Shown in pieces: positions 12,375 through 26,537 of a stretch of DNA of 64,000 nt (within the stretch, counting starts at the first letter, position 1; the number at the start of each line of letters is the position of its first letter). The notes under the pieces are model-generated. The model was not told the origin of the DNA. It saw only the letters and a program-made list of their open reading frames with translations, and did not search any database. A program made the position numbers and the translations under genes. The DNA is from Paecilomyces variotii (lineage: Eukaryota): assembly GCA_004022145.1 (NCBI GenBank), contig RCNU01000002.1, one strand, 5' to 3'.

Positions 12375-15300
12375 TCATGAGACATTCCCATCAGTGCTTC
12401 CATCATCGCCCCGCACGTCGGCTGCGCTTGCGACACGAGAAGTATTTTCAACACGCGGACGATGTTCTATGTGCACAGATTGGAATTGGTGCCAGCAGCT
12501 GGAGAAGTTAGTGTCTAACAGACCCCAAAGCCGTCCTGGGTACAGTACTTACTTTGGCGCGTGGAGCACATATCGAGCCATGGCTTCTCGGAAACGACTC
12601 TTGTACTCCTTCGGACTGGTGACGGTGGGCCGGTTCTTACCACCACCTGCGAAGCCACGGTCCTTGATCCACGACTCCAGTTTCTTGTCCCACGTATACG
12701 TCCGGATGCAGTCGATGATGCCGACAACAAGCTCCTGGCGCTGTTCGTCAATGGCGATCATAAGAGAATAATCCATGACGTTCTGTCGACCCAGGAACAA
12801 GGTATCATTCCAAACGCTCTGGCTGAGCAGCTTTTTCGAATGTTCCCGCGCGAATAAAGGGGTCTCATAGATGAAGTCGACCATGTTCTCGTCCAACAGT
12901 ACCTCGTTGCGCTCCCCAGTACTCTGCACCTTGCGATTCCGCATGGACCCCTTCAGGTCAAAGATGCGTGTCGGAATACGGTCGTAGAAGAGGTTCTCCA
13001 TCAAGAGAAGATACCAGTTGAACTCCACGCCCGTAGAGGGATTCTTGATGATCACTTGGTAGAATCCAAACATCTTAGCAATGGCTGACGGTAATTCGTG
13101 GAAAAGCGCCTCCGACATGATCTGGAAGTAGGCTGGAGCAAACTTCAGAAAGGCCTGGGTCTCGATGGGGGAGAGTGACTTGAGAATGAACCGATCGTCT
13201 AGTGTCTTCAGGAACAATGATTTAGTCTTGCCACCCTTGGAGTCCCATTTGGCGCAGCGAGACAGCGACTCAACAATGCGGTCTGCAATACCGCATTTTC
13301 TGCGGAGAGCGTCGAATTGCTCCGCATAGAACACCTTGCAAAGCATCTTTGCTTGTCCTTCTTGGAATTGATACTTGAGGTGTGTTCCTGTGGCCCTCAA
13401 CAAGGAGTGTTCCACTTGCGCCTCGTCATCGTCACGATCGCCGATTGACTCCGTCTTCTCTTCCGTCTCTTCGAAATGCTTCTGGATGCTGGCGAGCTTT
13501 TGCTTATAGTCCGACGAATCTAACGCAAAAGCGATCAGGGAGCTAGGCTCATCTTCGCGCACAATGATGTCGCAGTCAGCGAAGACATGATCAGACACCT
13601 TCAACGGATAATCCAGCGGCGCCCATCCACTCGCAGAACGTTCAGCCCAGAAATTGGTCAGCATTCGCACCAGCGTACTTCGTTCATGTTTCGGCAGTTC
13701 CTTTAGATCCAGACTATCGTCTGGCTCGAGCTTTGAAAGTTCGTCAGGGGTCTCAACCAACTGAAGCTCATCGGTCAAGCTCCTCTCTGCATCGCTATGC
13801 TCCTCTTCAGCTTCAGATGCAACTTGACTGGTTTCACGAGTAGGCTCCTCGATCTCCGTCGATTGCACCGTCACCTCCTCCAAGGCAGGCTCTTTCGTAG
13901 AAACATCGGCAGAGTTTTTCCGTGTGAGCTCTTCGCTTTCTCGGCTCTGGTCATCCAAAGAAGCAGGCCGTTCGGACGACATGAAATCATCCCCTTCACC
14001 TGATGGCTCCCGTTCTTCCACTGCCTCTCGCACGTTTCTGTAAACCTCGACGATCGGTTTTGACGACGCCCGTGGGAAGGCACGAGAGTGTTTGCCCTTT
14101 GCTGCTCGTTGTTGTCTCTCCCTCTGGCGTTCTTTTTCAAATTCTCGACTGAGCTGCTCAAAATGCTTGGCCAGATTCGAGACACGGCTGCTCTTCTTTT
14201 TAGTAGGGACGGAGCGAGGAATTAGCGAGTGTCCGCCCGTGAGTCTTCCGGTCTTCAGAGCGCTGAATCCCAGACGATCCGAGAGCTTCTTGTCGTTGAC
14301 TTTGATTTTTGGCTCGTACGGCGGGATAGCTGCTTTATCTACGTTCCTGGAATTGGTGTTGCCAAAGCCAGACTTCAATGCCCCTAGTGGGCCAGTTGAG
14401 CCATTGCTCCTTTGTCGTTGTAAGCCAACAGGCTGGGAATAAGTCCGGAACAACGGAGGAGATCGTGCTTTCCCACCACTGGAACGCATGCCCCCTTCGA
14501 CGGGCCTCGGGATTGCTGAAGGTGGAAGAACAGGTGTGGCTTCCGGAGTCGCTCCATTCGACTCACGTCTCTCGATTGCAGGTACCTTTTCGGAACGCAA
14601 GGGTAAGCCTGGGGGTGATAGGTTACTGATTCTCTCATCCAGATCCAGAGAAGGAGTAGCAGGCCTCGATACTCCTACGCGATCTGCATAAGTAGACTCC
14701 AAGGTTGACTCTTGCGAGAGACTAGACGGGATAGCCAGATCCAGATGCTGAACCCCTTCTGGATTCGTCGCTTCAGACGGCGGAAGGCGAGAGTCTTTGT
14801 TTGCCTCAGGACTCGCAGGGGGCGCTTGTTCCTCAATATCATCCGGTCTGGCGGAGAGAGTCGGAGAGTCAACGACAGCCTGAGTTGCGTCTTTGTTCAT
14901 TTTTCCAGAGTGCTCTTCGACGACAGAGACGAGTACGTCCTGCGCTTTTTCTGGGGACAGGGTCATTCGGCGAACTGGCCGTGGTTTCTCTGTGTCTTGA
15001 GCAGCCTCCTCGGCTCCCGGTTCTGAAGGTGTGGCAGCAGCCTCTTCTGTCGAAGTCAATGAAGTGATAGATGCGTCTCTGTCCAAGAATATCTTCTTCA
15101 ATTGCAATGCTGCCAATCGTCGAATATCCTTCTCGGAGGGAAAGAAGTTCTTCTCAAATTCCGCGAAGGCAGCGTCCCATTCCACAACCTTCTCTTGGAC
15201 AGAACGGAGAACCTCGTTGAGAGGTATAACCGCCCAGTACTGTGAGTTCATATACTTGTCCTGCAACTGTCTAATCAAAGCTGCATGGTCATCATTCGCT

Positions 15301-18300
15301 TTTTTCATCAGAGCCTCTGTTTCCCGTTTACAGCTCTCGACCAATTCCGGCATCACACTTTCCACATTTATGCTTTTAAGTCGAGCTTTCACGGATGCCA
15401 TGAACTTGTTGATACGGTGTTCGGTCTTTGAATACACCTCGTTTCTGAGTCGCAAATCATTGTCCACTTTCCACGTTACGCGAGTTCGCGGGACGATGAT
15501 TTCGAGTATATTGATAGGGTCATAATGGATACGTAAAGCCACATCCTTAAACCCGAAGTAGCGAAGGTGGTCACGGTGCAAATCGTGAGGGCAGACACCG
15601 GCCCGCGGATGCAAGTTTGCACACCAGAACGACAGCTCCAGATACTTTCCGAAGGAATACTTCCAGGTGCTCTCAGACATCGGCATGACCTGAGTCTCAT
15701 TGCCACATATCTTGCAGCTACTCCACATAAGGATTGTATCTTGCATACCGCGGAGCTTACTTGGATATGGTTGAACAAAGACGCTGATTTGAGCCTCACC
15801 GTGGACATATTGGCGGTGGTGCTCAAACATCCTCTTCTCGCACCCGTTTGCGGTGCAGATAGCATTGGCACTTAAGCAAAGGTCCTCTACATATTGCCCG
15901 AGCGTACAGTCAGGTTCAAACATTCTGTCGCTTTCGTGCTCGTTGTAGAACTCAATCGCGAAGACATCTGGGCCAGAGCAAGGGATAGACGTGGTCGTGC
16001 AGACCAGGCTGAAAAGAACGACAATATTTTGGTGGGCATAAGGGTCGAACAAGTTCGTGTTACCCGAAACGTAAGCCTCCCATTGCCTTTTCTGGGTCAG
16101 GTAGTTATGAAGAGCCCTGTCAAACTCTGCGTCGTGAACAGCATGAAGAACCTCCCTGACTTTTGGCGGAGCACCGCGAGGTGATTGATGCACCATCTCC
16201 GGTGTGATCAAGACAAACTTCTGTGATTTCGCTTTCTCGTCGGTTGATTGATCTGCGGCATCATCCTGATCACGGAGGCGCTTAAGGTAAGCAAGCCTGC
16301 GTTCTAGTTCCCGCGCGCGCATGAGGAGATAAGGAGGTTCAAATTTGACAAAGGGAGAGGCCGATAATATCTTGGTCTGATGCTTCTCGACCATATCTTC
16401 GTAGAAAGTAGGCATGGGTACGTCATCCGGAACGTCATTGCTTTCACCAGTAGCTGTCATAACGAGATCTTTCGACGGTACCACCGCGGTTGACTGTTCG
16501 CCTGCCGCTTCCTTGGAGTCGGTCAGTGCCTTCGCATTGCCGCCCTTGCCAGAGGTTTCACCTCCATTCTTGACGAGCTCGTCAGGAGATGTGGGTATCT
16601 GCGCAAATTCATCCCTCATCAGACAGGTCTCCAACTTGAGGTTGTACACGACGTAAACCATAAACTCCGTGATTCGCTTGACATTTACGAGGACGTCGTT
16701 ATCAGCTCCGCGCAAAACAATGGTACAGCCAAGTTCCTTTGGGCAGCCAGAGATATACATATACGTCTTTCTGCGGCCACCGTAGACGTAAGTTTTGACA
16801 TCGAAACTGCCACAGTGGCCAGTATGAGCTGGAGTGGTTACGAGTTTATCCATAGATGTGATAATGCGTGTCTGGGTGCATCTGGACACTGCCTCCAGTA
16901 CAGACGGCTTCACATTGTACGCAGTTGCGATGTTGGCTTTCTCAAGAAGCTCGAGTGCTAGACCGGACACATTCTTCTCGACCAGAAGCAAATTAGGGCG
17001 CAAAGCAGCAATGCGGCTGACAAGGTTCTCCAAGAATTCGCGCTCTTGCCGAATCACCGGCTCGAGACTCATAAAGTGTTGCTGATACCGCGCATACTCA
17101 AGCGGAAATGTAATGATGAGAATATTTGGCTGTGGGATGCTTCGAGGCATGCTTTTCAGTGCAAGGTTCTTAGTGAATACAAGTCCTGACACATAAGAGG
17201 TATCGCCGGGTCGGCCACCAGGTATCTTTTTCAGCTTGATATAGTGGCGAATATCCATGTCGTCTCCATGTTGAACGTCTGGATCCACCTCATCGGTGGC
17301 TTTCAGAAGAATAGGCAGAAGGGCATTCTCCCAACTATGGGCATGAGGTATAGCAGTGTCTTTTAGCAGTTGTCCGAGTAGCTTACGGACATGCTGCAGG
17401 CTCGCCCTGTTTAGCTCGATCGCCGGGGCGCCAGCACCCCTCATTGAGGAGCTTCTTGTCATTTTGAACCCACTGGATGCTACACCAGTAGAGCAGGCAA
17501 CCCCTTGTGGACTTTGAGGGAGAACGCTGAAAATACCCTCTTTGAAGATCCTTGGTGAAGGTCGCTGGTGAATACTACTGGCAACACTCAGATTGCGGCG
17601 GCGACCCTGACGCGGTAGATTCACTGCTCTCGAGCTAGTGATGCTACCATCCTCAGCGTCGCGACCAGAATGGATACCGCTAGCAGCGCTGCGGTCGCCA
17701 AAACGAGATCTACCCTTTTTGACAGCTGCCAAAAGCCCGCCAAGCGTAGCTTTCTCGTGATCACCACTACCTTTGGGCAAGGAACCATCGGAAACAGCAG
17801 CGAAGATGTTTGGTTGTTCATCCCCACTAGACGCATCATCAGAAAGATACTGAGCTAAGTCGGGATCGATGATACTGTCTTTATGGAAGGCCGGAAGATG
17901 GGCCTCTGGGCCGATCTCTTCCACATGCCGACGCTGAAAGGGGGCCCTGTCGTCGTGGAAAGATTTAAAGTTGCGTATATACTGCTGACGGGAATGGTGA
18001 CGTTTGTGGCTCATGCTATAGGGACGTCCCCCATGAGATGACTTCAGAGAACGAGACGAAGTCGGTCTCGCTAAAGGTCGGTCAGAATCGATCTCTAAGA
18101 CAGCTGAACGACGATTATGACCTTCTCCCGCTCGCTTTGTGGCAGGAATAGCCATTGTCGGTGTTTTCATGACGTGCTCTATAGACTGAGAAACTATAGA
18201 AGCTGAATCGTCATCATCAATCAGCGGTCGAGGAGGGTTCACGTGTAAAGGAGAGTTGGATATGAGAGTGTGGGGCACGATAGGGCTGGCTTCGTTCTCC

Positions 18301-20045
18301 GTGAAGTCTGATGAGTCGTCTTCGTGAGCGTTTATCATGACTTCGCAAGGTTTACAGACACGTATCGACCCGCTCTGCCCAAACTGCGCGCCAGGGATCA
18401 AGGAGGTACACTTCGAATCGAAGATCTGGCCACATGTCCGACAATGGTGTTTCCGTCGAAAGGTCGAGAAAGGCTCTCCACAGTGGAAACAATCCTTCGC
18501 ATTTTCGTCACGCATCCAGAAGTCTTTGCTCAGTAGTCTGCTCCTCAATTGTGTCATAACATTACTTTGGTTTGCTGTCTCGCCAGCCGGATATGAAGGG
18601 CGTTTGTCACGGGAATTTTGGCTATTCGAGCCATTTGTAGACCCTCTTGTAGCAACAGGTGAGCTTGTTGTGGCAGTATCTGTTGACGATGTTCGGGACA
18701 TGATGTAGCCTGGTAGGCGACTCTGTACGGTGTGCGGAGTCGCTTTCTGTCGTGGCTTGTTAACAGAATGCCTGGAGGAAAGAGCCGACTTATGCTCATT
18801 GTCAGTCATCGCAATGGACGTCTCCAATGTAGTAGGAGTCCGTGCTTCGGGTCCGGAGCTATCATCGTTAGGGATTCTAGAAAGGCTGTTTGTAGCAGAG
18901 CTTATGCCCGCTGACTCTTCTGACGCAAGCGCGACTGATGAGCTGGGCGCCGAGCTATCCTGAGATGAGAGCTGAGTGTCATGTGCGCCATCAGTTTGCT
19001 TCGTTTTCCATGTTGAGTTGGGCACAGATGTGTCTAATTCGGGCAACGGGTGGCGATCGAGGGGGACATAACCAGCTTTCTTCGGTTTATCGTTACTCAA
19101 CGGTTCCCGTCCTAAGCTCGGAGAGCGGGTACTATCGGGTACATTTTGCCCATCGCCATACAAGACGTTGGAAGATTTAGCAGTAAGGATCGGAGAATAA
19201 GACTTGCGGGGACTCAATCCTAATGAGCTTTGACCCTGAGAAGGGTTAGGTGAACTTTCATCTCTGCCGGTCGCGACTGGATCCGCATTATACATGGCAT
19301 GAGAAGATAAGCTGGCAGAATTGCTCCTAGAGCGATCAGGAGCATCCCTGGTAGCGTTCACCTTGACTTCCGTAACTGTGGGATCCGCCGTAGAGACATT
19401 ACTTGTCGTCTTAGGGAGAGGCGCAGTGGGTGACTTCACGGGAGGAGCTGGCGAGACGGAAGCTTTTGAGGAGATGCTAGCAGTCTTCGAGGAGAACCTC
19501 GAGCTCTTCGCTGCCTGCGCTTGGGCAGAGGCATCTGCATTTGACGGGAAAGCGTTCAAAATCGGCGAATGGATCTTTGACCCTTGGGCCGAGCTCGGGT
19601 ACGAAGAATGGGAATCTGCAGTCGGGACAACAGGAGTCGGAGCAGCGCTCGACTTGGGACTAACGAAGTCACTGTTGGGACTCCTGATGCCAGATCCATC
19701 TGCTGAAGGGGCCCCATCCACTGGCTTTCCAGAGCCACCGACGATGTCTTTGACTCCTCCAACAGACGCCCTGAGTCGGTTATACAGTCCACTCAAGCCT
19801 CCCTGAATATCCCCGGTTAAACTTTTGTTATCTGTCACATTTGATGAATTCGGAGGATGCGTAAACTCGTTGAAGACTGTCAGCGAGTCTGACTGATAGG
19901 CGGCAGAATGTATTTGGTCCAAGGCCTCGTTCAGATTTTCCCGTTCCGCCTGACTCGATATCGATGCTCGAGAACTACGTCTCCCTAGAGGTAGAAAGAT
20001 CGACGACGCAGATGGGCTCGCGCCCGGAGACTTCTGCGAAGCCAT
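12375..20045 (-). CDS. FAB1: 1-phosphatidylinositol-3-phosphate 5-kinase (Fab1/PIKfyve)
   Basis: FYVE domain (FWMRDENAKDCFHC...RRKHHCRTCG), CCT/chaperonin-like domain, Cys/His-rich CCR region and PIP kinase domain (GGKTKS, FDLKGS, MDYSL, IIDCIRTYTW). Likely start MASQKSPG at 20045. A final intron at ~12499-12552 leads to the last exon NCWHQF...* with stop at 12375-12377. Confidence 0.97.
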
Positions 20046-20783
20046 ACCAGGTACGCTTGAATCGTGAAGGTCACAGAGCGACTTGGGCAAGCGAACGACA
20101 AGATATCATGGCGCGTCAAACATATCACCATTCCAGGTATCGGATATCACGAACTGGGGAAGCTTCCCCAGATAATAATCGATAGAGACAGCAAGCATCG
20201 AGTCTATTATGAGGTGGGTAAGTTACCCATCGTCTCCAGGAACCTGCCCAATACGCAAAGTCAGCAAACCCCGCCTTCAGAGCAGTTTCTAGAATAGTGC
20301 ATGCTATCTGACCATACCAATAACAGAATAGGATGCAGTAGTAAACCAAGACTGACCAAGATCGCTGATGTTCATAAAGGGCCGATAGACGACCAGCTTC
20401 TTCTCTTCTCTTTGTTTCCGACGCAGGCAGGCCTACGATATGAACGTCTCTGCCCAATGACGTGGTGTGGCGCCCACGGCACGTGGAAGTGATGGATGAC
20501 TCAGCACAAATTGTCCGGCAGAACTTCTCGGGCGGTGAAATCACGTCTCCAGATCCCGTGCGTGTCGCGTCTGGAAAGTGATCAGGGAGTGGGCAGATGT
20601 CGCATCAATGGCCGCTATAATGTGAATAAAACAGCAGCTGCAGTGATGAACAGCCTTTATTATCTTTCAATCAATTCTACCCCATTTTGGCTCCGTTCTC
20701 CCGAGACTAGCCGCAGCAGGGATTCCGAAATGAAGTTTCTACAGCGCCCTCTAAGCTCTACCGACATTAAACCATAGGTATTA

Positions 20784-21325
20784 GATTCTTCGGACAGTTG
20801 GATTCGCCCTGTCGCTAAGAGAGCTATATCTTCAGTTGCGTACCGATCATTCAGATAAGCAATTACTACGGCATTCCCCGTCAGCCTCTAAGACGCCGGA
20901 GAAATTCGCAATTTACAAAGTTGGGCAACTCAGGAGACGCAAATAGTCGAAGTACATACATACAACAGCCTTTCTTCCCGTTTATCCTCTCTTATTGCTG
21001 ACTCTTCTAATTAGTTCCTTGAAGAACCACGTTGAATTTAAGCCGCCAAGTGCGATGCGAATGTCACAATTCTGTTCAGATCCTCTTCGCGAGCTTATAG
21101 TAACAACTCACTTGGTCGTTCTCCGGTACATGTGGGTTCAAAGTATGCGGCGACAGCAGAATTGAATTATTTCAAATACACGCCTGAGATCCAATCTATA
21201 TCGAAAGTTTCCAACTTCAAAAGGAAAGAGAATCGTCGATTCGGAGCTCAGCCAATCACTAAGACGGGAAACGTCTACGAATACGTGAATAGGCATTCAA
21301 GCATATCAAGGCTTCTTGAGGCACT
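20784..21325 (+). pseudogene. Eroded 5' exons (probable TPP1/Est3 OB-fold) of the downstream gene
   Basis: One frame reads DSSDSWIRPVAKRAISSVAYRSFR*AITTAFPVSL*DAGEIRNLQSWATQETQIVE. A putative intron follows at 20952-21014 (gtacat...gctgac...tag), then FLEEPR*I*AAKCDANVTILF...ELNYFKYTPEI. There are four in-frame stops, no ATG at the expected start, and the frame differs from the ORF at 21326. The OB-fold resemblance is from recall. Confidence 0.5.
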
Positions 21326-23977
21326 ATGGATGACCCAGAGGCAGACGCTTCCCAGTCGGACGGCTCCATGAAATCGCAGGCTAGTGTACTGTCTATGTCC
21401 AGACCAGATCAAAGGAACGGGTCTGACTCTCAGGAGAATCTTGCAACACAAATTGCGCCCACCCAAAGTGCCAACCTTTCTGACTCTATTCCGGCCCGGC
21501 AGCAGCGCTGTGTAGCGCCTGGCAAATATCTCTTAGGTGTACTGGGACAGCCCTCCAGATCTACTTCTAATACGCAAGTCCATACCGAAACGCCTCTTCA
21601 AAAACCTCTTCCTACTAGTGAGCCTCAGAACGCGACGGAAAAGTGCGCTCCTAATACGACTCCCAAACAAACTACAAGCCAGAGTTTACCGCTGGAGAGC
21701 AATAAGTCAGCCTCTAAAGAGGACAGAAACAAGCCGGGCGAGCAGACGCAGTCCTCTACGCAGAAAGCTCCTATTAACCTCTCACAGCTATCTTCACGCG
21801 ATTACGCTGGTAACACTTGTTCTATCGGCAGCTCCAGACCTGCAAATGGCAACCATGCAAACAATACGCGTCTCTCACAGACTGAGCAAGGTCAGAAGCG
21901 GAAGATAGACCGATCTCCACAGGGAAGTCAGACAGTCAGTCGAAAAGAGGCCGGCAGAAGCCCACGCAAACGACGAAAGCACTTACATCTGCCTCTAAAT
22001 GCAGAATCTGATCCTTCTAGTCCTTGGTATGGTATGACGAGGATACGTCGCAGGGACGTTCGAATCCCGAAAGATCAGGCCAGGTTGCTAGAGGATAGTC
22101 CCTGCTGGATGCCTCCAGCTCCTGGCGCTCCGCCGCCCCATTGCCATGTACCTCCGGCTCTCTTGCAGCAATGGAACGACGCGATAATTCGAAGGTTCTC
22201 TCGGTCCAAAGATGTCTCAGACCAAAGCCCGCCTTCGCAGATCGGATCTCCTCCCCTCCCTACTCCCGATGACCATGACCGATCTCAGTCGGACTCCGAA
22301 TCGGAAGCGTCTTGGGAACCGAGCCCTCCACATCACCTGCGAAATCCGCTCGTGCCGCCCGATAGTCCCGATGACCATGACCGATCTCAGTCAGACTCCG
22401 AATCGGAAGCGTCCTTGGAAGCAAGCCCTTCACATCACCTGCAAAATCCACTCGTGCCACCCGATTCCAGTCCGCCTGAGATAGCTGTTCGCACCAAACC
22501 GGCTAAAGATAAAAGCCGGGATAATCCTCAAGAGTCGCATTCTTCGTCTAACAACGGCCCTGAATCTGGCTCTCAAGCCGCTTTAGCTGCTGATGAACGA
22601 GAAGAACTAAGGGAAGGAGAAGAACGAGAAGAACGAGAAGGAGGACGAGAAGAATCAAATGACGAAAGTGATGAGTCAGATATGGATATCTCAATGCCCC
22701 ATCCGCTCCAGTCAGGTACCCAGCAGAGTGAAACTTCTGCTGCGGTCAGTTCCGGTCAAAGTCTCCCGAGTCAGAAGCTTGTACACGAAATTCAAGTAGT
22801 GGAAACGCCAGCTTCAGCCTTTGAACGTCTCCGGGCTAAGAGGATCGATGGCAATACGGTTTATCCAAAGCCCGGACACCAGCACTCGTCCCAGAGTACG
22901 AAGTTTTCGTCAGAGTCGAGGATTATGGCCACATATGGCAGCAGTGCTCCTGAGACAAGTTACTGTCCTCCCCCGGAAGCTTCCTCGGCTCATCCTGAAC
23001 GCGCCATTTCCCACGATCCCGCTGAAATCAGCTCTGCCGAACCCAGAGACTCCATGCTGAATTCACAGATGTCCGTCGATTCCAACTCACAGTCCCAGCG
23101 ACCTGAGCTTGAGGAGTCCCAGCATGAACGGTCGATTGTTCGGCGAAGGACAGGGAGCCCTGAAGAGAGACCACTGGGCGGTTCGTCTGGACAGCATCCT
23201 CCTCAAGGAGCCAGCAACTCTGGGGAACAGTTAGACCACTCATCTCCGCGCCTACCTTCTCCAGACCAGGAACATGCGGAGAAAGAATCAGCAGAAAACA
23301 TATCTCCGCGTCATCATCCTGTTATGGACCGGCCTGAGAACGATGTCGACCTATCTTCCTTGAACCAGTCAAGAGATGAAATACGTACCGACGAGATCTC
23401 CTGTTCAGAGCCTCCCGCAGAGCCACCTGCAGATTTCGCCTCTGATATACAGAAAGACGCCACTCCTAGAGCCAGTCCCGTTGTGCGAGCTGATCAGCAA
23501 AATTTGTCCGTGGGGAGTAATCTCGTCAAAGCCCAAAGAGCATACGAAAAATTCTGCCGTGACTACCCAGTATACCCTGGGGATTTCAGGCACTTTACTA
23601 GGATGTGTGTCAAGCTGGAGGCTGTGAGAGCCGGGGGACAGTTGCGACGATCGTTCCTTTGGGACGACTTTATCATCCGACATTTGGAAGACTACCCGCG
23701 TTATCTCGAGGCCTGTATTTCTGCCGTCGAAGAGCCCTGCAGATACGAAGATTACTTCGTTGGCACTTTCATGCGACCTTTGTACAAGAAGAGGAGTCTA
23801 ACAGCGGCTGCAGTGGAGGCTTCCGCAGCAAATTGCGCTCCTAGTAGAGCCTCAATTAGCGGCTATTCCACTACGCAGAGTGTGGCGAATCATTCTTTTA
23901 CAGGTAGCCTCGTCAACCAGCTCTCCCGGCTCCGGACATCCTCGTTTCAAGAAACGGCCGACTACGGCACCCCTTGA
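21326..23977 (+). CDS. 883-aa low-complexity protein; probable central portion of a TPP1/Est3-domain (Tpz1-like) shelterin subunit
   Basis: Long intact ORF, rich in S/P/Q/E. Two conserved-looking blocks, PWYGMTRIRRRDVRIPKDQARLLE...WMPPAPG...HVPPALLQQWN and YEKFCRDYPVYPGDFRHFTRMC...RRSFLWDDFIIRH, match what I recall of Eurotiales 'telomere replication protein EST3'-annotated proteins. The ORF is solid; the identity is less certain. Confidence 0.6.
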   Translation: MDDPEADASQSDGSMKSQASVLSMSRPDQRNGSDSQENLATQIAPTQSANLSDSIPARQQRCVAPGKYLLGVLGQPSRSTSNTQVHTETPLQKPLPTSEPQNATEKCAPNTTPKQTTSQSLPLESNKSASKEDRNKPGEQTQSSTQKAPINLSQLSSRDYAGNTCSIGSSRPANGNHANNTRLSQTEQGQKRKIDRSPQGSQTVSRKEAGRSPRKRRKHLHLPLNAESDPSSPWYGMTRIRRRDVRIPKDQARLLEDSPCWMPPAPGAPPPHCHVPPALLQQWNDAIIRRFSRSKDVSDQSPPSQIGSPPLPTPDDHDRSQSDSESEASWEPSPPHHLRNPLVPPDSPDDHDRSQSDSESEASLEASPSHHLQNPLVPPDSSPPEIAVRTKPAKDKSRDNPQESHSSSNNGPESGSQAALAADEREELREGEEREEREGGREESNDESDESDMDISMPHPLQSGTQQSETSAAVSSGQSLPSQKLVHEIQVVETPASAFERLRAKRIDGNTVYPKPGHQHSSQSTKFSSESRIMATYGSSAPETSYCPPPEASSAHPERAISHDPAEISSAEPRDSMLNSQMSVDSNSQSQRPELEESQHERSIVRRRTGSPEERPLGGSSGQHPPQGASNSGEQLDHSSPRLPSPDQEHAEKESAENISPRHHPVMDRPENDVDLSSLNQSRDEIRTDEISCSEPPAEPPADFASDIQKDATPRASPVVRADQQNLSVGSNLVKAQRAYEKFCRDYPVYPGDFRHFTRMCVKLEAVRAGGQLRRSFLWDDFIIRHLEDYPRYLEACISAVEEPCRYEDYFVGTFMRPLYKKRSLTAAAVEASAANCAPSRASISGYSTTQSVANHSFTGSLVNQLSRLRTSSFQETADYGTP
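22265..22468 (+). repeat. In-frame 102-bp tandem duplication (2 copies)
   Basis: 22265-22366 encodes PDDHDRSQSDSESEASWEPSPPHHLRNPLVPPDS and 22367-22468 encodes PDDHDRSQSDSESEASLEASPSHHLQNPLVPPDS. Confidence 0.95.
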
Positions 23978-26537
23978 GCTGTCCCTATATCCGGTCAACC
24001 TGGGACTCGGCCGGTTGTTGCATCCGAACCAAACAAAATTACAAAGGTTACGGGCGCTACGAGTAGATTATCCCCCGAGAAGAGAGGGAGTCCGATCCCG
24101 CGCGAGTTCACGGAGACTCGCGATGAAGCAGCTACGCAAGAGTACCACGAAAGAACGAGTGCTGGGCTCTGAGATAGAGGGTTTGCCAGTATATGAAAGA
24201 AGGCAGGCTCATACTCGTTCACCAAGCCTGCAGCATATAGGCCATGGCGGTTGCTATACATTCTCTTGCATTGTTCTTTGTATCGACAGACACATATATT
24301 AACTCTAACGGGACACCCTTATGAAACATGCCCGTGATCATGATCTTGCCTCTTTTCCTTTTTTTTTTTTTTTAGCATGATACCACCATAGTTAAATTGA
24401 TTTATCAATACATGAGTTTTTAACTCCTATAAGAAATCGCTGCCTTTGCCTGCGGAGATCGATCCAGCGAGAGACATTACTACTTTAGCTAAGAGAACAT
24501 TTACAACTAATCAGAAATCCCAGCGGTGGCAACTATGTCGACTCTATTTTGTGGACTCTGGTCCCAAATAGTTGTATTGCGGATATATATTTTCCGACAG
24601 ACCATCATGAACTTTGCGCATGCACATACAGTACTTACATTTCAGACCCAAACTTACGAGACAGACTTATAACGAATCACATCCATAAAAACCACAAATA
24701 AACCATCCAATCTTACCGAGTGAAATTGAATCAAAAGCCCCAGGCATCGTTTTACTCAAGATCAGCTACGTATTATTACCTGAAGTCTAGAACGTCCAAT
24801 AATGACCAGAGTTAATCTCTTTTTAGTCGCCTCGCCCCACCATCTGGGCATATATCTTGTTCGAGACCGTGGAAGATGGGGAGGGTAATTTAAACATGCT
24901 ATTATTATTGCACTACGGTCCTGGAATAAGTGATAGAATGTATGTATGTACAACAGGGCATGCATAAATTCGGGAATGAACCTTGGGCTTTTTTGTTTGA
25001 CTGTTGTTCCTGGCCATGTGGGCGTGCTTGGCATTATTTGCCTGGATGGTTCGCAGCGGCAGACTTGACGAAGACGGACACGGGAAGTCCTTGTGATAAT
25101 TTTGGAGGATTTGCTAATAAAGACTACCTGCAGTGTCTCGTTGAAAGGGGATGAAAGACGTCTTGTGTTACTCTGAAAGCGACTTATCCTGGATGATGTG
25201 ATGTTGAAAATACGTCCGGATACAGCATCGGAACTCGGTTGTTGATCGATTTACCTTTCATGAGCAGATTGAGAGATGATAGTAGATGATGATATTTAAC
25301 TAGTATATATACATGTGGGTGATCCTGTCGAGTATTGACCTGCTTGATATGTAGAGTAGACGGGGAAGAAACAAGCATTGTTGTGAACGGCAACTATCAG
25401 AAGGTAAAGTGATAGACTTCCTGTCTACCAGAAATGGCTTTCTCCTTTCCTCAAATTACTACCTCGTTATAGTTACCCTCTTCTCTACGACTGTCAAAGA
25501 CTCAAAAGGGAACAGAACATCTACATCCCTGGCTTTGTAGGAGAGGGTTGCGCGTCCGGATCTGCTTGTAATGTGATGATTCCTGGCCGTGAGTTCCGTA
25601 GGATGATTGTGCTCCCTTCTCTCTAAGAATAGATACTCTCTACTCTCGAGTAAGGGAAGATGGCGCAGTTCTCCTTGTTCCCTATCCCCGTCCATGTCCC
25701 TGTGGCATCATGCTGATGTCTAGTAGTGCTGTGGCTCCAACGGGCTGGATTGGACTGCCTGGCCAATGTCCAACAAGCTGTCAACAAAGCGCGGCCATTT
25801 TTAGAGTCCCACTGGGTGACATCAAGCTGTCTCAGTCAGATACAGACCGGCGTTGGATGTTTCAGCAGCTGCGGCTGCGCGGACGGGCGCCTCGACGACG
25901 CTCTCGACCGGACGAGCTGGCGCCCCGGATGGGCTTCCGTGATGTGACTGGGTCTGTGGGAGAAGATCTGCTGTGCTGGGCGCTTATGGTTGAGCGTCTT
26001 GAGGGTCTGGAGAGGCGCTGATGAGTCTAGTTGGTGAAATCCCCTCGCCGGTGGGCTCGTGCTGGGGCTCGTGGTGAGCGGCTGAGCAACGGGCCTGCCC
26101 GAACACTCGCAGGGGGCAGTTGGTCTTGTCTCTTGTTCTTGTTCTTGTTCTGTTCTGGTCTGGTCTGGACGAACTTCCATCAACGCTGCCCATCGCACTT
26201 TTTTTCTTCTTCTTGCTTTGCTTGATTGCTTGACGCTCGTTCTCCCCTTTCTTCTTCCCATTCTCTGTGTGTGTTGTTGAGACTTGCTCGTCCGTGAGCT
26301 GCTCGCGACTCCCGGCTTGGATCGACCGCCGCCGGGCTCCGACGCAACTGCGCCGCGTGTACGCTGGACCGCCTAAGTGAGGAGTAACTAGTCGAACTCT
26401 CCAGTATCTCCAAGGCTCCAAGTCGAACCTGTCGTCGCTTCTGCCTCTGAATTCTCCTCCCAGTTCACGAGCTGGCTGCCGCTCTGGCTGACCCAAACGA
26501 GTTGTTTCTGCCTTGTGAGGGGCAAAACAATCTCACA

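Follow-up and report, generated by a model that had tools for sequence, protein, structure and literature searches.

The TPP1/Tpz1 gene of Paecilomyces variotii has lost its OB fold, whose exons persist as a spliced 5' leader

A stretch of 64,000 nucleotides (nt) of the fungus Paecilomyces variotii (GenBank assembly GCA_004022145.1, contig RCNU01000002.1), hereafter the window, contains the TPP1/Tpz1 orthologue of this species. No other TPP1/Tpz1 gene could be detected in P. variotii. Its OB-fold exons have turned into a spliced non-coding 5' leader in which the fossil of the domain can still be read, and the remaining 883-codon open reading frame (ORF) is under purifying selection. The loss of a domain in a still-selected gene, in a genome with an apparently working telomerase, is well supported; the functional parts assigned to the protein are read from sequence and are worded with more caution. 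The OB fold of TPP1, Tpz1 and Est3 is regarded as a conserved and required telomerase handle in humans and both model yeasts. In S. pombe, for instance, a single change in the TEL patch leads to ever-shorter telomeres (PMC4936895). A fungus with telomerase and template-matching telomeres that has discarded this OB fold would be a natural separation-of-function case.

The former OB-fold region occupies 20781-21325, just 5' of the ORF. The ORF, the intron 20952-21014 and the stops TAA 20856, TAA 20889, TGA 21033, TAA 21039 and TGA 21317 were all found where the original prediction for this DNA had placed them. An open frame of 883 codons has a probability of about 4e-16 under the base composition. 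The parts of the gene and its leader are the following:

20730..20777 (+): upstream ORF of 15 codons, at one of 13 upstream ATGs, which stops at the end of the first exon
20778..20835 (+): leader intron of 58 nt, GT-AG, joined in RNA runs X17 and X18, at a place that belongs to coding exon 1 in Thermoascus
20781..20951 (+): relic of the first OB coding exon, with TTA at the start Met of the orthologues, WIRP at 20799, TAA 20856 and TAA 20889
20952..21014 (+): ancestral phase-0 intron inside the OB fold, 63 nt, GT-AG, still spliced in RNA runs X17 and X18
21015..21232 (+): relic of the second OB part, with TGA 21033, TAA 21039 and a 1-nt deletion near 21193
21233..21325 (+): relic of the helix and linker after the OB fold, in the frame of the main ORF, with TAA 21260, TAG 21290 and TGA 21317
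21326..23977 (+): ORF of the truncated TPP1/Tpz1 protein of 883 amino acids (aa), whose start Met is common to P. lecythidis and absent there in Thermoascus

The upstream DNA is a dead OB fold, as judged from its end-to-end match to the intact domain of Thermoascus. A frameshift-aware orthologue profile was anchored on the intact Thermoascus aurantiacus protein KAL2216675.1 (1,242 aa; PF10341 at 34.2 bits). Residues 1-142 of this protein are collinear with 20781-21232, with 36 of 142 columns identical. The alignment scores 44.7, compared with 20.3 +/- 2.5 for shuffled sequences, and none of 100 shuffles reached it; the best of 48 other tiles of the window scores 26.9. Significance was reached only by the profile, once the intron had been taken out and a frameshift was permitted. 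The search that had been proposed for this region, with a stop-masked translation in a single frame, returned nothing from Pfam, PF10341 included, nor from pairwise comparison. The intron 20952-21014 is at the same position in Thermoascus and in two other Eurotiales loci, and all three have the same divergent neighbour, which serves as a synteny marker:

12549..20045 (-): a kinase gene which, from its motifs, we take to be FAB1-like

Hence, the prediction that the upstream frame aligns to orthologues holds. In the relic, the ATG is missing, stops of all three kinds occur, seven in number, and there is the 1-nt deletion, which makes nine lesions in total. It had been described as one single frame, which is correct for its first half, but the deletion shifts the second half (IYIESF...) to the frame of the main ORF, in which another three stops are found. 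The residues WIRPVAKRAI, taken for the beginning of the OB fold, do align to the N-terminus of Thermoascus, but they lie in the second intron, 20778-20835.

The seven stops compare with 8.8 expected in neutral DNA of like composition, and the decay is therefore old and near complete. Repeat-induced point mutation (RIP) was considered as its cause and rejected. With a GC content of 0.44 and a TpA/ApT ratio of 0.80, the relic resembles local intergenic DNA, the RIP regions of the genome being at about 0.2 and 1.4, and a search with the relic DNA found no second copy in the genome; a RIP-inactivated gene would combine low GC, high TpA/ApT and a duplicate. As for variation among the strains seen in RNA, one has a 2-nt deletion inside the relic, and the insertions within the ORF add up to 6 nt.

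The leader was followed in contigs of four metatranscriptome runs from two studies, aligned to the locus. These stem from mixed fermentations, and contigs drop rare forms. Two runs of one study (X17 and X18) splice both 20952-21014 and 20778-20835, and a single RNA contig, 20429-21999, passes both joints into the ORF. Removal of 20778-20835 takes out the old start region. The X18 piece over 21015-21302 is ungapped with a single difference; the frameshift and at least three of the four stops in this segment are thus retained after splicing. In the RNA contigs, no splice joint was seen near the 3' stop, and no excess of A>G over G>A was found that would signal RNA editing. Moreover, all four upstream stops are kept in another strain, as seen in an unspliced contig whose 27 differences are all itemised. 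All 384 sampled words are present in 10 of the 24 listed runs, five of which are flagged as possible sources and five (two studies) are not. Since the words occur in runs not flagged as sources and the stops in another strain, the sequence is not an assembly error; the stops are real, as the prediction implied, and the checkable ones remain in spliced RNA.

The assignment to TPP1/Tpz1, made in the original prediction, is confirmed by the orthologues. The Pfam search of the 883-aa ORF itself gave no match, PF10341 included. Its relatives are a protein of a P. variotii strain (87% identity, 850 aa), one of P. lecythidis (55%, 848 aa) and, further, Eurotiomycete proteins mostly of 1,100-1,500 aa, many with PF10341 (91 matches among 8,000 scored candidates). 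In its protein cluster, 10 of 11 members have 879-883 aa; the other is a 431-aa call from an internal start. PF10341 stands at the N-terminus of the orthologues, with the score given above for Thermoascus and 40.4 bits for A. fumigatus, and the locus is the syntenic, single best match of such proteins. In the model of the A. versicolor orthologue, the N-terminal domain is confident. Its best fold match is TEBP-beta (Z 12.1, root-mean-square deviation 6.3, 157 aligned), next to human TPP1 7tre_C (Z 12.0, 3.2, 132 aligned) and Est3 (Z 11.2, 3.1, 130 aligned). The P. variotii product has no OB fold with a TEL patch: PF10341 is absent, and its model has no beta domain.

The expectation that the 883-aa middle is under selection proved right. 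Identity to P. lecythidis is 137/169 at family-conserved columns and 352/648 elsewhere (p = 7e-11). With the 87% strain, the values are 174/177 and 599/672 (p = 2e-5). The structure model folds only about residues 223-302 and 718-840. Three retained parts were distinguished:

22022..22195 (+): conserved block, about residues 233-290, at the position of the Pot1-binding motif; putative Pot1-binding site
22310..22324 (+): SWEPS, a SWSSS-like motif; its W330 is shared by 62 of 63 aligned homologues
23477..23830 (+): helical domain, about residues 718-835, with a predicted local distance difference test score mostly >90, conserved in Eurotiomycetes

Within the block, residues 241-280 are identical to P. 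lecythidis at 37 of 40 positions. A profile search of solved structures matched no Tpz1/TPP1 chain or peptide. The complex of Pot1 392-634 with residues 222-300, predicted with alignments not used, scored 0.18 against a mark of 0.34, which is neither support nor counter-evidence. Around W330, many homologues have WS.SP and P. variotii has WEPSP; to the Stn1-binding SWSSS of S. pombe this is a resemblance only. In fold searches for the helical domain, no match exceeded Z 4.1, in a weak test with the whole model as query. In S. pombe Tpz1, a Pot1-binding motif comes after the OB fold (PMC9333443), the Stn1-binding SWSSS motif is next (PMC6686008), and the Ccq1 and Poz1 sites are at the C-terminus (PMC4199508). 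Metazoan TPP1 has the same three-part plan (PMC8653790). By this order, the retained block and W330 would fit the Pot1- and Stn1-binding motifs, and the lost tail the Ccq1/Poz1 sites. As a separate observation, positions 22271-22470 of the window hold a near-duplicate segment within the ORF (PDDHDRSQSDSESEASWEPSPPHH / ...SLEASPSHH). In this segment, the SWSSS-like region occurs again but lacks the second W; the segment is absent from the 850-aa strain and from P. lecythidis.

The other end of the protein is shortened as well. A total of 151 homologues were compared at a 20-bit cut-off, with OB and terminal-motif profiles built from these homologues. The OB fold is missing in 24 of the 151 and the terminal HETASIELG...WSDDPNTPFKxWAR region in 20. 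All 13 Paecilomyces proteins among them lack both. Apart from these, the OB-less records comprise five of T. marneffei and six that are probably partial gene calls; for two of the six, cluster mates with an OB fold exist. The terminal motif WSDDPNTPFKxWAR was undetectable in the product and in the six frames of the window. A possible remnant lies behind the stop:

23978..24172 (+): possible C-terminal relic, 64 in-frame codons after TGA 23975, with EYHERTSAGL resembling YHETASIEL of the family

This remnant is not significant, its score being reached by 7 of 60 shuffles. In this genome, the last ~200 residues of TPP1 are cut off, and with them presumably the C-terminal bridge motif (to TIN2, or to Ccq1 and Poz1) of a canonical TPP1/Tpz1. 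From its position, the family terminal motif would be the Poz1/TIN2 site. The original prediction saw the OB loss correctly, but the second intron, the internal frameshift and the C-terminal loss were missing from it.

The P. lecythidis records start at the same Met as P. variotii and stop some residues later. This species and the other Paecilomyces were compared as protein records, and Paecilomyces DNA as that of P. variotii only. Metagenome searches with the P. variotii protein yielded no locus of its own; the alignment gave eight loci, none of them Paecilomyces by similarity. The protein records suggest that the double truncation holds for the genus. Of 47 proteins chosen for a tree, 43 were included (the other four have no motif anchor); in it, Paecilomyces groups with Aspergillus/Penicillium (98/92). 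The OB fold is present on both sides of Paecilomyces in this tree, so its loss is derived and separate from Talaromyces. In Talaromyces marneffei, all five records (P0057, P0117-P0120) are OB-less and four of them keep the C-terminal motif, which may be an independent loss or a gene-calling fault. Two basal Eurotiales homologues (P0014 and P0016) keep the OB fold, end near the Paecilomyces end and have no terminal motif; they could be intron-cut gene calls or a second C-terminal loss.

Telomerase itself is in place. On contig C45, TERT can be read without interruption for about 1,188 aa across five introns, the last with an atypical donor, and has the catalytic motifs. The telomerase RNA was found on C67 (47.5 bits), and the template context ggacacc-tAACCCTAA-ttac lies some 1 kb upstream of the domain that was matched. 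The genome also has Pot1 (634 aa according to the species record) along with a second POT1-OB protein, two genes of the Est1 family and Rap1. The second POT1-type OB domain (C12:1048097-1048489) closes an acidic open frame of 1,196 codons; this protein is a possible alternative telomerase partner. Besides the gene on C5, a second intact gene with an Est1 DNA-binding domain, a 695-codon frame, lies at C34:716788.

Telomere arrays are present at 5 of 161 contig termini (172 total) and consist of 10-16 repeats of T2-4AGGG. Four of these arrays together hold 50 repeats, namely 6 T2, 31 T3 and 13 T4 AGGG units; the order differs between them and the flanks are unrelated. TTAGGG x3 is absent from the genome because the repeat is mostly TTTAGGG. 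According to TeloBase, the same template context goes with TTTAGGG in A. terreus and A. carbonarius and with mixed repeats in A. bisporus (PMC10767889). Judged by this, the P. variotii arrays are consistent with the template and not unusual within the order. The extra T was also considered as a result of the OB loss. This was rejected, as TTTAGGG is made from AACCCTAA templates in both A. terreus and A. carbonarius, the latter of which still has PF10341. Genes and matching repeats are thus at hand, and an intact telomerase appears to build the telomeres. The original prediction had offered altered telomere maintenance as one consequence; in the sense of telomerase loss, this is not supported.

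The array ends on C14, C6, C19, C56 and C61 mix TTAGGG, TTTAGGG and TTTTAGGG, each beginning with a TTAGGG unit, and the C19 array is joined directly to sequence of 50% GC, like a healed break. On C67, an AT-rich, RIP-like repeat with a period of about 21-23 kb occupies about 25-93 kb. Within it are at least three 5' fragments of the genome's own TERT, riddled with stops (near 37-38.5, 59.5-61.8 and 81.7-82.9 kb); the first is accompanied by a fragment of the EST1-family gene of C5. Changes show an approximately tenfold bias towards C>T and G>A, and part of the repeat matches the telomeric end of C56. A Pfam search of 14.4 kb of the repeat, read through stops, found nothing else. Two telomerase-related genes captured by a subtelomeric element are an unexplained finding.

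Telomerase and normal-looking telomeres despite the OB loss suggest recruitment without a part thought to be required. The following course of events is fairly probable as a whole. The OB-fold exons would have ceased to be translated in the Paecilomyces lineage and decayed into the spliced 5' leader, a new start Met would have been adopted just 3' of the former domain, and the last ~200 residues would have been lost. The truncated 883-aa protein would serve as a capping adaptor, holding Pot1 through the 233-290 block, as its position suggests, and Stn1-Ten1 through the SWSSS-like motif. Since an intact telomerase seems to make the telomeres, chromosome ends must be reached and elongated by it with no TEL patch involved. 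Recruitment via Est1, and activation with the help of RPA or Pot1, would be the likeliest way. A repurposed truncated protein is also the best fitting of the three outcomes that the original prediction had named. A broader version falls somewhat short of an even chance: Paecilomyces would have no TPP1/Est3-type OB protein at all, its essential telomerase would be recruited and activated without a TEL patch, and TPP1 would only cap. The same may have happened independently in Talaromyces, given the five OB-less T. marneffei records, and the TEL patch would then be repeatedly dispensable in Eurotiales.

Several observations weigh against this course of events. In S. pombe, the TEL-patch mutant tpz1-R81E loses telomeres with or without Poz1 (PMC4936895), and loss of the C-terminal brake would therefore be insufficient there. 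Current models place the OB fold in an RPA-TERT-TPP1 complex from yeasts to humans (PMC13577582). It is this conflict with the S. pombe data and the models that makes the case interesting. Strain differences in the ORF are non-synonymous in 16 cases and synonymous in 11 (27 codons; 40 of 122 rows), and the linkers are thus weakly constrained as far as the listed changes go. P. lecythidis matches the family consensus at 123 of 177 columns and P. variotii at 140. The spliced leader, counted from 20429, has 776 nt with the 13 upstream ATGs, and the X17 piece over TAA 20856 and TAA 20889 has five differences, which are not itemised. Finally, the absence of a second OB protein rests on searches with no positive control in an 86-contig assembly.

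This last point bears on an unlikely alternative, a split gene, in which the TEL-patch function would come in trans from an Est3-like OB protein, separate and fast-evolving, or from the second POT1-OB protein on C12. Budding yeast Est3 is a precedent, the second POT1-type OB gene does exist, and the intron-split OB domain evolves fast, with 36% identity between Thermoascus and Rasamsonia and weak PF10341 scores in the clade (22-34 bits). In the searches just mentioned, however, no other locus was found with PF10341, the Thermoascus or Rasamsonia OB domain, the full Rasamsonia protein or the relic DNA. An intact paralogue elsewhere, as the original prediction had envisaged, did not emerge from them either. 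Among 29 OB matches over 300 aa, none carries a Paecilomyces name. Of 62 HMMER matches, most of them without a name, nine were looked up and none was named Paecilomyces; the shortest two have the look of fragmentary gene calls, and one match is a false bacterial one. Moreover, RIP is experimentally active in P. variotii (PMC6300479), which limits duplicates. A remote Est3-like gene keeps some probability because of the missing positive control and the fast divergence of the OB domain.

The gene might instead be a decaying pseudogene, with a central ORF that is little or not translated and ends capped without TPP1. The loss of both ends, the upstream ATGs and the many non-synonymous differences in the linkers would agree with this, but the frame is open in 10 of 11 cluster members, in the 87% strain and in P. 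lecythidis at 55%, change is significantly depleted at conserved columns and the transcripts are spliced, which leaves it very improbable. Hardly better placed is maintenance of telomeres by recombination, resembling alternative lengthening of telomeres, in which telomerase would be dispensable or have another role and the OB fold would be lost since recruitment was moot. Microstromatales yeasts lost the whole Tpp1 gene together with TERT and template-made repeats (PMC13234504), and the RIP-mutated TERT and EST1-family fragments on C67 could be read in the same way. Telomerase-negative fungi have neither TERT nor template-made repeats, however; here, TERT and the telomerase RNA are intact, and the arrays are short, differ in the order of T3 and T4 units, have unrelated flanks and fit the template shared with A. 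terreus and A. carbonarius. Least probable is restoration of the OB fold in RNA or at the ribosome at some stage, by editing, readthrough or EST3-like frameshifting. EST3 frameshifting and fungal stop-codon editing are known, and mixed fermentations and contigs without rare forms might hide such products. Yet the start codon, seven stops and the frameshift would all need repair, and splicing of 20778-20835 removes the first helix. The nine lesions are of mixed kinds, the checkable ones are kept in RNA contigs that show no editing excess, and a frameshifting deletion segregates in the relic.

Compared with S. pombe Tpz1 and human TPP1 (ACD; PF10341), the Eurotiomycete orthologues share the OB fold at the N-terminus as well as the order of OB fold, conserved block, SWSSS-like motif, long linker and C-terminal motif. 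They differ in their length of 1,100-1,500 aa and in a helical domain of no clear structural match. The Paecilomyces product departs further, having neither the OB fold with its TEL patch nor the C-terminal motif. The full-length Eurotiales proteins (T. aurantiacus KAL2216675.1, Rasamsonia, Aspergillus and Penicillium) share the FAB1-side locus, the OB intron and the conserved blocks, with 30-35% identity over the middle, but keep both the OB fold and the HETASIELG...WSDDPNTPFKxWAR end. Microstromatales are likewise a natural fungal loss of Tpp1 function; unlike them, P. variotii still has TERT, the telomerase RNA and repeats that match the template, and its loss is confined to the ends of TPP1. 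That the OB and shelterin-adaptor parts of TPP1 are separable is demonstrated by Est3 of budding yeast. Est3 is the OB fold only, and the Paecilomyces product is its mirror image, all but the OB fold (and tail). In Arabidopsis, telomerase is reportedly engaged through the POT1 protein POT1a, and we know of no TPP1 in plants. This is like the proposed route in that telomerase is reached via a POT1 protein and not via a TPP1 OB fold, in Arabidopsis POT1a itself, but it concerns another kingdom and no truncated TPP1 with a visible relic.

In the literature consulted, mostly without subscription papers, nothing was found on TPP1 or telomeres of Paecilomyces or on a natural OB-less TPP1 alongside telomerase; the supplements of PMC10767889 and PMC10246852 may list P. 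variotii. P. variotii is transformable and crossable (PMC6300479). With such a tractable species and relatives that keep the full protein, minimal telomerase recruitment and activation, including the proposed role of RPA, is directly testable. A minor observation concerns the other side of the leader: at about 20270 of the window, an RNA contig has a poly(T) loose end, possibly an artefact, which looks like the end of a minus-strand transcript upstream of the FAB1 start.

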